Source of the DNA: an uncultured delta proteobacterium
GTDB lineage: Bacteria; Desulfobacterota; Syntrophorhabdia; Syntrophorhabdales; WCHB1-27
DNA length: 64,000 nucleotides
Direction of reading: 5' to 3'
Assembly: GCA_963825005.1 (NCBI GenBank)
Contig: CAWGRP010000007.1
Location: forward strand, 104,045 to 168,044
Below are positions 147-30,359 of this stretch, piece after piece. The notes under the pieces were generated by a model. That model searched no databases. It was not told the DNA's origin and saw nothing but the letters and a program-made list of their open reading frames with translations. The position numbers and the translations under genes are program-made. The first letter of the stretch is position 1. Each line of letters begins with the position of its first letter.

Positions 147-1214
147 ATGAAGCGCTACAGGAAGTGGTTCTTTACCGGTCTGATCATACTGGCAGTGGAG
201 TTCAGTTTAGTCGCGCTTTTGAACTACATTGTCGACCCGAGCGGCTTTTTCAGGTACGCGACCTGGCGGCACGATGTTTCTCATCAGTTTCTGCTGGTGA
301 ACATGAATTTCGTTAAAACCCGCTATATTGCTCAAAATCCGCATAAGTTCGACTGCCTTATCTTCGGCTCCTCAAGGGCCAACGCTATCGATGTGAGAAG
401 GCTCAAGGAAGCTAACTGTTACAACATGTTCATAGGAGCCGGTCTTCCGCGCTATTACCTCGACAATCTACGCTATATACTGGAGAAGGGAGCCAAACCC
501 AAGTTAGTCATGATAGGCCTCGACGAATTCTCTTACAAGAATGACCCGGCAGAGGAGTTCACGGATTACGTTAGATATCCCTATCCCCCGGCGGTGCATC
601 AGAACAGAGTGCTATTCTATCTGAAATATCTTGTTCGTTATTCATCGAGAAGCATGAAGGAATCGTTCGAAGGGTACGAGGGCAAGAAGCCGCCAATTCC
701 GTACGATCATGATACGGGCCTCATGATACCGGACCCCAAGGTAGAGGAAGCGATTGACGCAGACCCGATTACATATGCTAAAGATCCGAGATTTCAGCAA
801 CCCTTCGCGTCAAGCGGGGACAGGATGGATGCGGCGCTGGAGGAGATCAGGGAAACGGTGGATCTCCTGAAAGCGCACGGAATACGGCCGATCGTCTTCA
901 TGGATCCCATCCACAAAACCACCTACCTGGCTACAGGCCTGGAGAGATTCCTCCTGTTCGAAAAAGAATTGAGCAAAATTACGAGTTTCTACGACTTCAG
1001 CGGCTTGAACTCCATTACTACCAACAACGCCTATTACCTTGAAACCTCTCACTTCACGTTCAAGGCCGGCGCGCTAATTCTTGCCCGCATACTCAACATC
1101 GGCGTCAAGGTACCTGCCGACTTCGGTGTGCTGGTAACCAGGGAGAATATTGACGAGCACCTTGCTTACCTGAGGAGCCAGGTCGCAGGCCTCGGATCAC
1201 AAGTCAAATGGTAG
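147..1214 (+). CDS. membrane-anchored hypothetical protein, tandem paralog 1 (tentatively a DltD/SGNH-like partner of the upstream acyltransferase)
   Basis: 355-aa ORF starting 8 nt after the upstream stop. N-terminal TM helix WFFTGLIILAVEFSLVALL; LIFGSSRANAID serine motif. Homologous over its full length to 1531..2601. Confidence 0.8.
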   Translation: MKRYRKWFFTGLIILAVEFSLVALLNYIVDPSGFFRYATWRHDVSHQFLLVNMNFVKTRYIAQNPHKFDCLIFGSSRANAIDVRRLKEANCYNMFIGAGLPRYYLDNLRYILEKGAKPKLVMIGLDEFSYKNDPAEEFTDYVRYPYPPAVHQNRVLFYLKYLVRYSSRSMKESFEGYEGKKPPIPYDHDTGLMIPDPKVEEAIDADPITYAKDPRFQQPFASSGDRMDAALEEIRETVDLLKAHGIRPIVFMDPIHKTTYLATGLERFLLFEKELSKITSFYDFSGLNSITTNNAYYLETSHFTFKAGALILARILNIGVKVPADFGVLVTRENIDEHLAYLRSQVAGLGSQVKW

Positions 1215-1240
1215 AATGGCGGGCTGCTTTTTGCGCTTTA

Positions 1241-1363
1241 TACCGATTCGCAATCAAGATGGAGACCGAGGCGGCAGCAAGGAGCCGACGAAGGCGTACT
1301 ACTAGTACGTCGAGGAAAGCGACGCAGGGACAACGAAGGTATACGATTGATGGCGAATCGGTA
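1241..1363 (+). mobile_element. family-A MITE-like element, copy A1 (short subtype)
   Basis: Ends TACCGATTCGCAATCAAG... and ...TTGATGGCGAATCGGTA are inverted repeats. Flanked by TTA (1238-1240) and TTA (1364-1366). Near-identical to the reverse complement of 28025..28148. Confidence 0.8.
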
Positions 1364-1366
1364 TTA

Positions 1367-1483
1367 CTTCGTTGCCCGTCAGCCTGTTCTGCTCGACGCA
1401 CCCCAAGGTACGCCTACGCAGACCAGCCTTCGGAGCGCCTAGGGCACCCGGCCGAAGGCTGGGTCATGCATCAAAATTGAGCT
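1367..1483 (-). mobile_element. family-A element, copy A2 (long subtype, outer terminus degenerate)
   Basis: The reverse complement carries the blocks GACCCAGCCTTCGGCCGGGTGCCC, GGCGTACCTTGGGGTGCGTCGAG and GGGCAACGAAG, shared with 11898..12042 and 29355..29504. It abuts A1 head-to-head. Confidence 0.6.
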
Positions 1484-1530
1484 CGCCACTATCCGCAGGC
1501 TTGTATATGGGCGACATTCTGGGCATGTTA

Positions 1531-11755: not shown

Positions 11756-11897
11756 GATTCGATAGTTTAATCTCTACAGGACGGGAAGTCAAAGGGGGTC
11801 ACGGCTGCATCGCGCTCGCCACCATGCGCGCAAATGAGGCTGTGATGGTGCTTTCAGCTCAAGCGGGCGGATAACCAAACTGCTCGATCGAATCTTA

Positions 11898-12042
11898 TGC
11901 TAATTTGCAGTCAAGATGGACGACCCAGCCTTCGGCCGGGTACCCCGGGCGGCAGCGAGGAGCTTGCCGGAGGCGTACTATAGTACGTCGAGGAAAAGCG
12001 ACGCAGCGACAACGAAGGTATCCGCTTGAATGCGAATTAGCA
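11898..12042 (+). mobile_element. family-A MITE-like element, copy A3 (long subtype)
   Basis: TIRs TGCTAATTTGCAGTCAAG / CTTGAATGCGAATTAGCA, flanked by TTA 11895-11897 and TTA 12043-12045. Central palindrome GTACTATAGTAC. Confidence 0.8.
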
Positions 12043-12588
12043 TTAGAACCAGTAAGCCGGGTATCGCCTCTTTCCGGAAAGGTTATTGGTAATGAGCCCA
12101 ACCGCAAGGAGGATGGCTACGCCCAGTGCGACAGGCACCAGCACGTACAGGAAGCCCAGATCATGCACGGCCTTACCCCCGATCACGGCGGTCATGGCGC
12201 TGGCGCCGCCCGGAGGGTGTACGGTCCTGGTGAGAAGCATTGCCATCACTGAAAGCGAGACTGCGATCGTAGCAGTCAGCCAGATATCAATACCGAGCAC
12301 TCTATGGCAGGCTGCTCCAATAAACGCCGATATGACGTGGCCGCCCATCACGTTCCTCGGCTGGGAAAAAGGACTTGCCACCACGCCGTAAACCAGCACT
12401 GCAGAAGCGCCGAGAGAGCCCAGCATCAAGCTGAGCGACCGCGGTTCCAGGTAGCATGCGGAAACCAACCCGCACATGCCGGTCCCGACCAAGGCACCGA
12501 GACCCGACCAGAGAATCTCTCTGAGGGGAACCCTGGGTGGGCCCTCGGCGCCGCCTTTCATTTTTGAGAGATATTCCTTGAAATTCAC
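12043..12588 (-). CDS. HPP family membrane protein
   Basis: 181 aa, multi-TM, with the diagnostic HPPGGA motif. GTG start overlaps the upstream CBS stop (GTGA). Confidence 0.85.
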   Translation of the reverse strand: MNFKEYLSKMKGGAEGPPRVPLREILWSGLGALVGTGMCGLVSACYLEPRSLSLMLGSLGASAVLVYGVVASPFSQPRNVMGGHVISAFIGAACHRVLGIDIWLTATIAVSLSVMAMLLTRTVHPPGGASAMTAVIGGKAVHDLGFLYVLVPVALGVAILLAVGLITNNLSGKRRYPAYWF

Positions 12589-27733: not shown

Positions 27734-28024
27734 ATGAATAGAAGGCTTTCAACGCTAAAAATCTTTTCGATTCTCTTTATCAGTCTGTTACTCATGGCTA
27801 TATCCGGGGTCCACTCATCTCTCGTCGCCGAGGACGATATCAGCGTGACCAGGGACGATGACAAGACAGTCTATTCAATTGATGGCGGAGATGACGCCAG
27901 AAGACAACAGGAAAGAGAGAGGGACCAGGCCATCGATATGCTCAAGAACATGCCTGTCATAATCGATGGCAGGAGAGGTCAACCCCTGCCGCCCAGGCCC
28001 GTGCAGCCCACACCGGGCAACTAA
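27734..28024 (+). CDS. small secreted hypothetical protein
   Basis: 96 aa with signal peptide (LKIFSILFISLLLMAISGV), acidic then Pro-rich tail. GAAGGTG RBS. Its TAA is the target duplication of repeat A4. Confidence 0.55.
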   Translation: MNRRLSTLKIFSILFISLLLMAISGVHSSLVAEDDISVTRDDDKTVYSIDGGDDARRQQERERDQAIDMLKNMPVIIDGRRGQPLPPRPVQPTPGN

Positions 28025-28148
28025 TACCGATTTGCCTTCAAGTGTATACCTTCGTTGTCGCTACGTCGCTCTCCTCGACGTACCCCAAGGTACGCCTTCG
28101 TCGGCTCCTCGCTGCCGCCTCGCTCTCCATCTTGAATGCAAATCGGTA
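28025..28148 (-). mobile_element. family-A MITE-like element, copy A4 (short subtype)
   Basis: TIRs TACCGATTTGCCTTCAAG / CTTGAATGCAAATCGGTA, flanked by TAA 28022-28024 and TAA 28149-28151. Confidence 0.85.
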
Positions 28149-28181
28149 TAAGCATAGCTGTTTGAATTCTCTCTGGCCTCC

Positions 28182-28733
28182 TTGATTAATCGAAGCGACA
28201 TCATTTATAGTGAATGCGTGAAATCGAATCTCATTCTTATCGGCATGCCGGGCTCAGGCAAGAGCACAGTCGGCGTGCTTCTCGCAAAGCTCACCTCCCG
28301 CGGCTTTATAGATACGGACGTTCTCATCCAGACGTCGCAGCGTCGCACTCTGCAGGAGATCGTCGATACCGACGGCTACATGGCGCTTCGGAACATTGAA
28401 GAAGAGGTTCTTCTCAATCTCGATTGCCTTGATCACGTTATCGCCACCGGGGGCAGTGCTGTGTACAGCCACAAGGCGATGGAACATCTAAAGCGTGACG
28501 GTCTCACTGTCTTTCTCGATGCAGACATGGTCACACTGGAATCGAGAATCAAAGACTTCAAGACCCGCGGGTTGGCAAAACGGCCCGATCAGACTCTTGT
28601 CGATCTCTTCCAGGAACGTTATCCCCTGTACGTGAAGTATGCCGATATACTTGCACCGTGTGTCGGACTGAACCACGAAGAGCTCTGCAACGAGATCATC
28701 GGTGCCTGTGGGAGATACAGAGTACATGGCTGA
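28182..28733 (+). CDS. aroK: shikimate kinase-like P-loop kinase
   Basis: LIGMPGSGKSTVGVLLAK Walker A, FIDTD, IATGGSAVY and LAKRP match the AroK/AroL layout. The start is uncertain (TTG 28182 or GTG 28218). Confidence 0.75.
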   Translation: MINRSDIIYSECVKSNLILIGMPGSGKSTVGVLLAKLTSRGFIDTDVLIQTSQRRTLQEIVDTDGYMALRNIEEEVLLNLDCLDHVIATGGSAVYSHKAMEHLKRDGLTVFLDADMVTLESRIKDFKTRGLAKRPDQTLVDLFQERYPLYVKYADILAPCVGLNHEELCNEIIGACGRYRVHG

Positions 28734-29340
28734 ACAGGAAAACATCGGGAAGCTTCATCGATTAACCGAGACCGAAGAAAAGATATTCCAACTCGCAAAG
28801 CCTTATCTCTTCGTAAGGGATAACGAGACGCATACTCGCTCTGCAATGACGTTTGCGCTGAGACTGCTCGGGACGGAAGAGGGTGACAGAGATATCGTCA
28901 TCCCTGCGGTGACTCTGCATGACGTTGGGTATCACGCGCTTACCGAGAACCTTATATCGCGCGCCTGGGGTCCACGGAAAGAGAAGGAGATAACTCGAAT
29001 GCATGAGCAGGAAGGGGCCAGGATAGCTGCAACGATACTGAAGGAAGCAGGATATGACGTAAGGAGAACGGCCGAGATCCTGGAGATCATAGACGGCCAC
29101 GATACTAGATCTACTGCTCTCTCAAACAACGATCGTGTCGTGAAAGACGCCGACAAATTGACGCGGTACGCAAAGAGCCTTGAATCCTGGCTGCCAGTGT
29201 TTTGTTCCACAATTGAGGAAGCCGCCGCAAGACTGGAACGATCAATCGACGATTGGTTTTTTCTACCGGTCTCCAAAAAAATTGCAAGAGCAGAATTGAG
29301 ACAGCGCAGAATAGAAGCAGAAAAAGATTCAATTCTATAA
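28726..29340 (+). CDS. HD-domain phosphohydrolase
   Basis: HDVGY and DGHD motifs. ATG 28726 overlaps the kinase stop by 8 nt (ATGGCTGA). Confidence 0.75.
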   Translation: MAEQENIGKLHRLTETEEKIFQLAKPYLFVRDNETHTRSAMTFALRLLGTEEGDRDIVIPAVTLHDVGYHALTENLISRAWGPRKEKEITRMHEQEGARIAATILKEAGYDVRRTAEILEIIDGHDTRSTALSNNDRVVKDADKLTRYAKSLESWLPVFCSTIEEAAARLERSIDDWFFLPVSKKIARAELRQRRIEAEKDSIL

Positions 29341-29354
29341 AGGCATATGACGCC

Positions 29355-29504
29355 CAGCGGTTTGCATTCAAGATGGATGACCCAGCCGCCGGCCGGGTGC
29401 CCCAGGCGCGCCGAGGGCTCACGCAGCGGAGGCGTACCTTGGGGTACGTTGACGCGGAACAGGCCGAAGGGCAACGAAGGTAGGCGCTTGAAGGCAAACG
29501 GCAG
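29355..29504 (+). mobile_element. family-A element, copy A5 (long subtype)
   Basis: CAGCGGTTTGCATTCAAGATGGATGACCCAGCC...GGAGGCGTACCTTGGGGTACGTTGACG...GGGCAACGAAGGTAGGCGCTTGAAGGCAAACGGCAG. Confidence 0.75.
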
Positions 29505-29630
29505 CCGGTTTGGATTCAAGATGATTACCGAGGCGCGCCGAGGGCTGGGCAGCGGAGGCGTACCTTGGTGTACGTTGACGCGGAACAGGCCGAAGGGCAA
29601 CGAAGGTAGGCGCTTGAAGGCAAACCGGTG
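29505..29630 (+). mobile_element. family-A element, copy A6 (tandem to A5, internally shortened)
   Basis: CCGGTTTGGATTCAAGATGA...GGAGGCGTACCTTGGTGTACGTTGACG...CTTGAAGGCAAACCGGTG. It ends one base before the TTA (TAA on the minus strand) stop of 29631..30287. Confidence 0.75.
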
Positions 29631-30287
29631 TTACTTCGCGCTTCGCGGAAGGATTGCTATCTCTCCATAATCCCCGACTGCACGGGAATTGGTATTGTCT
29701 GCATCGGTCAGAATGCCGATCCCGATTGCATTCGGATTTTTCTTTTTCCCAAAGAAGCGCTCATAGTCAGAAAGCACATCGCGTTCTTCCGTGAGCCAGG
29801 TGCCGGCCTGCGCTCTCCCGCTGCGAATGACGATCATCTTTGAGCCGCTTGAAAAAGGAGAATCGAAGGCGGCTCCCACCGGCTGCGTGTCGCTCCATAT
29901 GTACTTGATAGATTTAACGAACGGGAGACCGCTCAGTACCACGTAGAGGCCGAGAACGCTGTCGTTCCCTTTTTTTATCCGCTCGTCTGACCCTTCGGGA
30001 AACGTGACGGCTCTCCACTGCCAACGCAGCATCGGATACTCACTCAGGTCCCATTTCTTCTCGTAACTGATCTGCACCGACAGGCCACGCGCGTCAGCGT
30101 GGAGAAACTTCTTTTCACCCTCGGCCTGCACCGAATAAACCTTTGCGGCCTCTTCCTGATCTTTCGCTCTCCAATTCGACGGAAATTTTCCGACCTCATT
30201 CTGCTCGAACGTCACCTGAATGGGCTGTTGGGCAAAGAGGGTATGTGCCATAAAAACGATAAAAAGAGCAGCAAGTATAGGTTTCAT
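29631..30287 (-). CDS. secreted DUF3047 domain protein
   Basis: Signal peptide MKPILAALFIVFMAHTLFA. The blocks LRWQWRAVTFPEG...GNDSVLGLYVV...YIWS...ILTDADNTNSRAVGDYGEI match my recollection of DUF3047. Confidence 0.7.
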   Translation of the reverse strand: MKPILAALFIVFMAHTLFAQQPIQVTFEQNEVGKFPSNWRAKDQEEAAKVYSVQAEGEKKFLHADARGLSVQISYEKKWDLSEYPMLRWQWRAVTFPEGSDERIKKGNDSVLGLYVVLSGLPFVKSIKYIWSDTQPVGAAFDSPFSSGSKMIVIRSGRAQAGTWLTEERDVLSDYERFFGKKKNPNAIGIGILTDADNTNSRAVGDYGEIAILPRSAK

Positions 30288-30359
30288 GGGTTCCAATCTA
30301 TTGTAATACAGATCGGTGCAAGCGGCAACCGTTTCCAACGTATTGATGATCTGACGTGT

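Follow-up and report, generated by a model that had tools for sequence, protein, structure and literature searches.

The 64,000-nt stretch analyzed here (the window; C7:104045-168044, where C7 is contig CAWGRP010000007.1) belongs to an assembly of an uncultured delta proteobacterium of the Syntrophorhabdales (GCA_963825005.1; 6.17 Mb, 34 contigs, 98% complete) and carries six copies of a short intergenic repeat. These repeats are probably a non-autonomous mobile element of about 125 nt that folds over its full length into a rod, represents a structured family present in several phyla, and lies in one orientation against stop codons. A preliminary description, made from the sequence of the window alone, had presented the six copies as dispersed, non-autonomous, mobile-element-like units with shared sequence blocks, and this picture held. 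Direct reading of the six places shows the blocks as described, and a profile scan with nhmmer recovered all six copies, and no others in the window, at essentially the positions given before. The matches lie at 1233-1371 (+), 1361-1495 (-), 11890-12050 (+), 28017-28155 (-), 29348-29500 (+), and 29502-29638 (+). The central block, GGCGTAC-N(3-8)-GTACGYYGA, occurs 5 times in the window and in none of 100 shuffled versions.

The units in the window measure 123 to 150 bp, with ~125 nt being typical, and only spurious open reading frames (ORFs) run across them; they are non-coding and small enough for MITEs (less than ~300 bp), the miniature transposable elements with inverted repeats. The genome-wide profile scan that the preliminary description had proposed revealed a multicopy family, with the profile from the six window copies matching 270 places in the genome and a refined profile matching 292, 167 of them at full length. 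Units are oriented here so that GATGGAG...CAACGAAGG reads 5' to 3', and this strand, containing 34% G and 27% A, is referred to as the G-rich strand. The conserved core of the rod consists of CRAGGCG, GGAGGCGTAC-loop-GTACGYCG, and CAACGAAG, and it is common to three classes of copies. Class A has the outer end TACCRATTYGCATTCAAGATGGAG and the inner sequence GGCGGCAGCGAGGAGCCG, class B has the same ends as class A and the inner sequence GGCGCTCCGAGGCCTGGGC, and class C (47 copies) has an outer end resembling GGCCGAGGCGGATTTYGATG. Some copies carry extra hairpin modules or another apical arm, and variants with other inner modules occur.

Mobility is visible in two nested insertions. Within the window, an A-type copy at 1241-1363 (+; TACCGATTCGC...GCGAATCGGTA), delimited by a hidden Markov model match and a gapless alignment of its host, interrupts an older class-C copy on the other strand. 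The sequence at 1367-1483, described previously as a degenerate copy, is rather the 5' part of this split host (1367-1487, minus strand), in which the outer stem GGCGAGCTC is followed by AATTTTGATGCAT, the optional CCCAGCCTTCGGCCGGG module, the core, and CAACGAAG; the 3' part of the host, AGCGCAAAAAG with the outer stem CAGCCCGCC, lies at 1218-1237 on the same strand. Joining 1367-1505 and 1195-1237 with a single TAA yields a product whose alignment to 14 class-C copies is free of gaps; at the insertion spot, several of these copies read GAAG-TTA-GGCGC. The TTA triplets on the left (1238-1240) and right (1364-1366) of the inserted copy, identified from the sequence and this reconstruction, are its 3-bp target duplication. 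The second case, at C13:78836-78958, is an A-type copy that interrupts a B-type copy (...GTACGTCGAGTAA / element / TAAGAACAGGCCG...); intact B copies at this type of site read GTCGAGTAAGAACAGG, with a single TAA where the filled site has two. A search for paralogous empty sites recovered only this nested case outside the window. The host repeat therefore has a single TAA/TTA at both nested insertions, which confirms the 3-bp target-site duplication proposed earlier.

The flanking triplets reported for two further window copies are also as described, with TTA at 11895-11897 and 12043-12045 around the A-type copy at 11898-12042 (+), which has an extra hairpin module, and TAA at 28022-28024 and 28149-28151 around the A-type copy at 28025-28148 (-). 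Read in the orientation of the element, all three clean duplications are TTA, the copy at 28025 being a minus-strand one. Across the genome, identical flanking triplets border 31 of the 107 precisely bounded copies, compared with 13.3 ± 2.9 after shuffling (maximum, 26 in 5,000 shuffles). The matched triplets are TTA (18), TAA (7), TCA (4), and CTA (2), and 29 of the 31 have the form TNA; the 3' flanks as a whole also include CTA (11) and TAG (6), and the set is better described as stop codons than as TNA or TWA. Of the TWA duplication first proposed, the 3-bp duplication stands, but the duplicated triplets are mostly the stop codons of adjacent genes, in a fixed polarity, and are not simply TWA.

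Filled and empty sites differing between congeners, as envisaged in the preliminary description, are found as well. The syntenic gap of the relatives L001 and L003 contains no counterpart of the copy at 28025, and one relative has a copy immediately 5' of the ribosome-binding site of a 569-amino-acid (aa) gene at a place that reads TTAGAAGGAGG in the window and in two other relatives. The junctions in the relatives L001 to L003 and the congeneric genomes G001 to G005 are not placeable to the base because nucleotide identity is ~70 to 85% and the intergenic flanks have diverged.

An element of this kind could be a plain MITE, that is, a deletion derivative of an insertion sequence (IS) of the IS5 group or of a PIF/Harbinger-like element, in which the hairpin would be a consequence of long inverted repeats and the position at stop codons would follow from a TNA target combined with purifying selection. 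The 3-bp duplications, the matched ones nearly all of the form TNA, are consistent with this, as are the roughly palindromic target context (C-TNA-G), the two nested insertions, the high copy number, and the intergenic location. MITEs of the IS1031 group (IS5 family) or of PIF/Harbinger elements produce 3-bp TNA/TWA duplications, and their termini are conserved in sequence and are not co-varying stems.

The termini of the present repeats behave differently. Each unit folds as one long imperfect hairpin whose terminal arms pair as an inverted repeat over 13 + 6 bp. Outward from the conserved TTCAAG/CTTGAA anchor, offsets 2 to 13 are paired in 67 to 92% of the copies with both sides variable (at offset 8, G57/A44 on the left and C56/T47 on the right), and outer-stem pairs top the mutual-information list, with Watson-Crick pairing of at least 95%. 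The ~18-nt terminal inverted repeats described at the outset thus do pair, but the termini are co-varying stems and not conserved transposase-binding sequences. Class-C outer stems differ from copy to copy and are nevertheless always paired, for example, CCTGTGGCGGTGCAGG / CCTGCACCGCCACAGG, in which 16 of 16 positions pair.

Covariation was scored on the 41-pair rod in an alignment (A3) of 60 copies (8 A, 26 B, and 26 C) against two controls, one with shuffling and one in which the pairing partners were slid out of register. Paired cells amounted to 86.3%, compared with 70.1% after shuffling and 31 to 36% with slid partners; cells changed on both sides numbered 394, compared with 141 and 53 to 109, respectively; and the covariation score was 0.414, compared with 0.144 and 0.056 to 0.115. 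The observed score was reached in 0 of 500 shuffles, a control that overstates significance because the copies are related by descent; the slid-partner control is free of this weakness. The inner helix (43-49/93-97) also shows compensated changes, such as GGCT..CAAGCC, GGAC..CAGTCC, and CGG..CGGG. The stems change by paired substitutions, so that pairing is kept and sequence drifts.

The two strands of the rod are not equivalent. The G-rich strand is predicted to be more stable in 98 of 107 copies, with a mean of -60.5 kcal/mol compared with -50.5 kcal/mol for its complement, a difference of 10 kcal/mol. In the outer stem, G.T pairs outnumber A.C pairs by 97 to 42, and in class C they do so by 35 to 19. 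Two wobble pairs hardly vary, with G63.U81 kept in 58 of 60 copies and U21.G119 kept in 54 of 60; read on the opposite strand, the same positions would be C.A mismatches. Co-varying termini, a single core with quite different outer stems, and wobble pairs conserved on one strand all argue against a plain MITE. Covariation in all helices, together with conserved internal loops and apex, would suit a second explanation, in which the repeat is primarily a functional structured RNA, a 3' untranslated region module or an antisense RNA at gene ends that acts on mRNA stability, termination, or translation, with mobility being secondary and spread occurring by duplication.

The position of the copies relative to genes bears on both explanations. 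An overlap of more than 30% with a crudely called gene is seen in only 11% of the hits, and convergent gaps, which make up 13% of all gaps, hold 41% of the hits; divergent gaps hold 4%. Among the 107 A/B copies, the 3' flank triplet is the exact stop codon of a called gene on the opposite strand in 44, and the 5' flank is the stop codon of a co-oriented called gene in only 2. In a test independent of gene calls, which considered open frames of at least 80 codons ending no more than 12 nt from the element, such stops, of frames on the opposite strand, adjoin the 3' end in 62 of the 107 A/B copies (47 at distance 0), and stops adjoin the 5' end in 7; for class C, the corresponding numbers are 19 of 47 and 2 of 47. 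The stops used at 3' ends are TAA (26), TGA (23), and TAG (13), and those of the 5,395 called genes of the genome are TAA (1,561), TGA (2,528), and TAG (1,306). Relative to GC skew, the copies show an orientation bias of only 131:87; the polarity therefore follows the gene rather than replication.

Four window copies obey this polarity. The 3' TTA of the copy at 11898 is the stop codon of the minus-strand ORF 12043..12588, and TAA 28022-28024, on the 3' end side of the copy at 28025, is the stop codon of ORF 27734..28024 (+). The B-type copy at 29505-29630 (+; outer stem CCGGTTTGG / CAAACCGG) ends 2 nt from the stop (TTA at 29631-29633) of the minus-strand ORF 29631..30338, and the 3' part of the split class-C copy (1218-1237) lies 3 nt from the TAG stop (1212-1214) of ORF 147..1214 (+).

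Such a polarity is unexpected from symmetric insertion and is a further point against a plain MITE. For a structured RNA, the fixed orientation at stop codons and the depletion from divergent, promoter-bearing gaps are favorable; however, the better-folding, G.U-conserving strand is antisense to the gene whose stop it touches, so the gene's own mRNA would carry C.A mismatches at the wobble positions. The stop adjoins the G-rich strand at its 3' end, so that the transcript of the gene would run into the C-rich complement. The conserved blocks of the G-rich strand contain GGAGG/GAGG motifs that resemble Shine-Dalgarno sequences, and the gene transcript would be expected to carry CCUCC-like complements.

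A covariance model (R1) built from alignment A3 matches 69 of the 96 genomes of the class, including 21 of 21 in the window's own family and 47 of 69 in a second family; the genomes of the class with no match are mostly small ones. Of 147 genomes sampled evenly from the phylum outside this class, 30 have matches, in which CRAGGCG, AGGCGTA...TACG, and CAAC(G/A)AAG are kept. An exact-pattern scan of species-representative genomes returned at least 110 stretches, and our own estimate allows for up to ~20 matches by chance across the whole collection; among the matches listed are Smithella, Desulfobacteraceae, Desulfobulbaceae, Bdellovibrio, Oligoflexia, Rokubacteria/Methylomirabilota, Bryobacterales, Gemmatimonadota, and others. 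Contigs labeled Nitrosocosmicus, Enterobacteriaceae, and Clostridiales may be mis-binned, judging from their G+C content. In 70 of the listed exact-pattern loci, R1 gave 55 matches, nearly all of full length, including loci from Methylomirabilota, Bdellovibrionota, Acidobacteriota, and Gemmatimonadota. The matches in these groups form the same rod with entirely different stems, and their core is better conserved than their ends. Throughout the class, and in other phyla too, three purine-rich blocks and the two G.U wobble pairs are retained. A core that is more conserved across phyla than the ends is, again, not what a plain MITE predicts. In a Bryobacterales chromosome (OZ242366.1, 3682-6698), three near-identical rods lie within 3 kb, and the identical flank GGCGAGGCG before each of them suggests tandem duplication of a gene-plus-element unit.

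Relatives of the repeats have been reported from Geobacter metallireducens, where 24 predicted short RNA elements, group 1 (Gmet_R1001 to R1024; GSU0160.1 in G. sulfurreducens), were listed by Aklujkar et al. (2009, BMC Microbiol 9:109, PMC2700814, Additional file 4). These are multicopy, intergenic, ~110 to 115 nt long, with a central palindrome GRCGTAGC...GCTACGCC, and are also carried by other Desulfobacterota (PMC2700814). The blocks CTKCGTTG (the complement of CAACGMAG), CGTAS...STACGCCTC, and GCCTTGA (the complement of TCAAGGC) are common to two of the published sequences and the copies described here. These two Geobacter copies align with copies from the window genome and from four other Desulfobacterota, retaining all three conserved blocks, and they share with the window copies the order CRAGGCG, GGAGGCGTAS-loop-STACGYC, and CAACGMAG on a rod of ~115 to 125 nt. 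Judged from these sequences, the repeats appear to match the Geobacter group 1 elements as one superfamily. The Geobacter elements differ in having an apical stem GTAGC instead of GTAC and in numbering 24 copies, compared with ~290 here. Their description rests on BLAST-matched sequences with the function unstated, and it reports neither a fold nor covariation, and no target duplication, polarity at stop codons, or distribution beyond this (PMC2700814).

The Geobacter copies lend some weight to the structured RNA explanation, being annotated as predicted short RNAs, with one inside the dapAB-dapL operon (PMC2700814). A further precedent is provided by the bcr1 repeats of the Bacillus cereus group (Klevan et al. 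2007; Kristoffersen et al. 2011), ~155 bp long, non-coding, and transcribed, with compensatory changes, as summarized in PMC3184786. The bcr1 repeats resemble those described here in their short direct-repeat flanks, strain-variable distribution, and compensatory base changes that keep the fold, and they differ in having a 5-bp duplication, in belonging to another phylum, and in having no sequence similarity; the summary mentions no stop-codon polarity, whereas the present repeats are polar. On the other side, no Rfam 15 family matched at the gathering score in the whole window, with no relevant match up to an E value of 10 in 27950-29700, and the 3-bp duplications show transposition. Taken with the antisense placement of the better-folding strand, this makes a primarily RNA-level role possible but doubtful. 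A scan for tRNA and tmRNA genes found nothing. Hammerhead and other self-cleaving ribozymes were rejected because of ill-fitting core motifs and the negative Rfam result; integron attC sites were rejected, as the conserved blocks lie centrally and the ends have no R''/R' boxes; and intrinsic terminators were rejected, as the copies read have no T-run after the rod on either strand.

Other palindromic repeats show partial likeness. ERIC/IRU sequences of Enterobacteriaceae and Correia elements of Neisseria are imperfect palindromes of ~100 to 150 bp that are intergenic, have short target duplications, and, in some cases, contain optional internal modules; they duplicate TA, have termini conserved in sequence, and are each known from only one family or genus. 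The repeats described here differ from both in their 3-bp duplication, co-varying termini, and a core common to several phyla. REPINs, which occur with RAYT genes in Pseudomonas and enterobacteria, are hairpins with arms that change together and that persist for a long time, as is the case here, but they have no target duplication and are linked to a RAYT gene flanked by them; the present family has a duplication, and the Y1 genes of the genome are not flanked by it.

The four transposase families searched have no member in the window, in agreement with the preliminary description, and the nearest PF01609 match, at C7:171893, is beyond the window end. Matches to PF01609 and NF033581 represent IS4-like or IS5_4-type elements. 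An IS5_4-type IS was considered as a partner and rejected, since the ends of the four-copy element, which were read, are unrelated to the repeat family. This IS is 1,783 bp long, is present in at least 4 copies at 99% identity (C14:9703-11485, C4:122446-124226, and the ends of contigs C17 and C22), and shows no obvious terminal inverted repeats or target duplication at its BLAST-defined ends. PF13586 (DDE_Tnp_1_2) has no gene in the window genome (G000) or in the congeners G001 to G005, and PF13359 (DDE_Tnp_4) has none in G000 or in G001 and G003 to G005. The link to IS5-group or PIF/Harbinger-like transposases drawn in the preliminary description accordingly found no support from these genes or from an IS with such termini; the 3-bp duplication is the point of likeness to IS1031 and PIF/Harbinger MITEs, and such a transposase gene and matching IS ends were both missing from the searches. 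With no partner IS and no IS1031- or Harbinger-type gene found, a plain MITE appears unlikely.

Four Y1_Tnp loci are present in the genome, with open frames of 241 to 344 aa (331 aa for the translated one), at C27:29570-30562, C19:352574-353566, C15:71088-72062, and C6:128231-133229. The last consists of two pieces, and homologues occur in 60 of the 96 genomes of the class. These genes raise the prospect of a REPIN-like hairpin of single-stranded DNA mobilized by the genome's RAYT/IS200-like Y1 (HUH) transposases, with which the conservation of structure over sequence, the strand-specific fold, and the polar orientation would agree. Yet HUH transposition proceeds without target duplication, which is seen here at two nested sites; none of the genome's Y1 genes is flanked by the repeat family; and the GC-skew orientation bias is slight. 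Moreover, Y1 genes and the element do not go together across the 96 genomes of the class, as the congeners G001, G003, and G004 have at least 36 copies each and no Y1 match, and G035, G041, G073, and G074 have a Y1 gene and no copy. Mobilization by these enzymes is therefore very improbable, and the Y1 genes may pair with another repeat family of the genome.

For the mobile, rod-forming element favored here, mobilization would be due to a transposase acting in trans, our best guess being a DDE enzyme cutting at TNA with a 3-nt stagger, like those of the IS1031 group of IS5 and of PIF/Harbinger. The enzyme or the host would read a folded single strand, either the G-rich DNA strand or RNA; this would account for pairing, internal loops, and wobble pairs being kept over terminal sequence. 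Copies at stop codons would survive because the duplication regenerates the stop, and the polarity would reflect either an asymmetric, gene-tied insertion step or the loss of copies in the other orientation.

Several observations weigh against this interpretation. The autonomous IS with the same termini that the preliminary description had looked to was not found, there being no terminus pairs 0.33 to 5 kb apart in the organism's own, 98% complete genome; one pair 5.8 kb apart lies outside this range. IS1031-, ISL2-, and Harbinger-type transposase genes were absent from the genome and from the 4 or 5 congeners searched for each family. Action of a DDE enzyme on double-stranded ends leaves the co-varying termini, the strand-specific wobble pairs, and the polarity unexplained. 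Identical flanks are kept in only 29% of the copies, and some flank pairs are inverted complements (TGA...TCA six times and TAG...CTA four times), so that boundaries, or the mechanism of insertion, may vary among copies; class-C copies lack a clear duplication. Finally, among 50 model matches from other groups, stops adjoin the 3' end in 9 and the 5' end in 4, a comparison that is weak because the element boundaries are less exact.

The remaining window copy, a B-type copy with an extra hairpin module at 29355-29504 (+), is the first of a head-to-tail pair with the copy at 29505-29630. The optional hairpin module of ~26 to 29 nt (GACCCAGCCTTCGGCCGGGTRCCCC) occupies the same insertion place in different classes (11921-11948, 29380-29407, and 1440-1467 on the minus strand), and a related motif, GGGTACCCG, recurs in other optional modules. 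Window positions 28702-29633 correspond to 5520-5628 of the relative L001, where ~944 bp is replaced by ~108 bp; neither the 212-aa ORF 28702..29340 nor the tandem copies at 29355-29630 has a counterpart in the syntenic stretch of L001, and this gene-plus-repeat segment is therefore variable between congeners. Elsewhere in the genome, six class-C copies are clustered at C8:815806-822086 with a spacing of ~0.1 to 3 kb, and ~3.5 kb of this cluster, with five copies, is duplicated almost exactly at C30:1422-4941, which identifies a repeated multi-kilobase region. Head-to-tail arrays of two or three class-C copies with a spacing of ~131 to 135 bp occur at C13:508386-508738 and C22:59058-59285, with the outer stem of one unit directly after that of the next.

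Short repeats between genes are commonly classed as junk-like MITEs or repetitive extragenic palindromes (REPs). The present family has features that are not normally combined, namely, a proven target duplication, drifting paired termini, a purine-rich core with wobble pairs found across phyla, and a near-absolute orientation at stop codons. It is conceivable, although we consider it unlikely, that it represents an uncharacterized class of mobile structured elements spread over several phyla, whose machinery recognizes a folded single strand and inserts at stop codons in a fixed polarity. The mechanism of such a class would be distinct from those of DDE MITEs, IS200/IS605, REPINs, and integron attC sites, and the class could carry a host role at gene 3' ends. 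A fold read by the mobilizing enzyme would point to a transposition chemistry not yet described, and one read by the host would mean that ~290 gene ends of this organism have a 3' module in common. Geobacter metallireducens, with 24 related copies, is cultivable and genetically tractable. In annotation, a covariance model of the family would clear many spurious ORFs, as well as gene ends extended in error, from genomes of Desulfobacterota, Methylomirabilota, and others.

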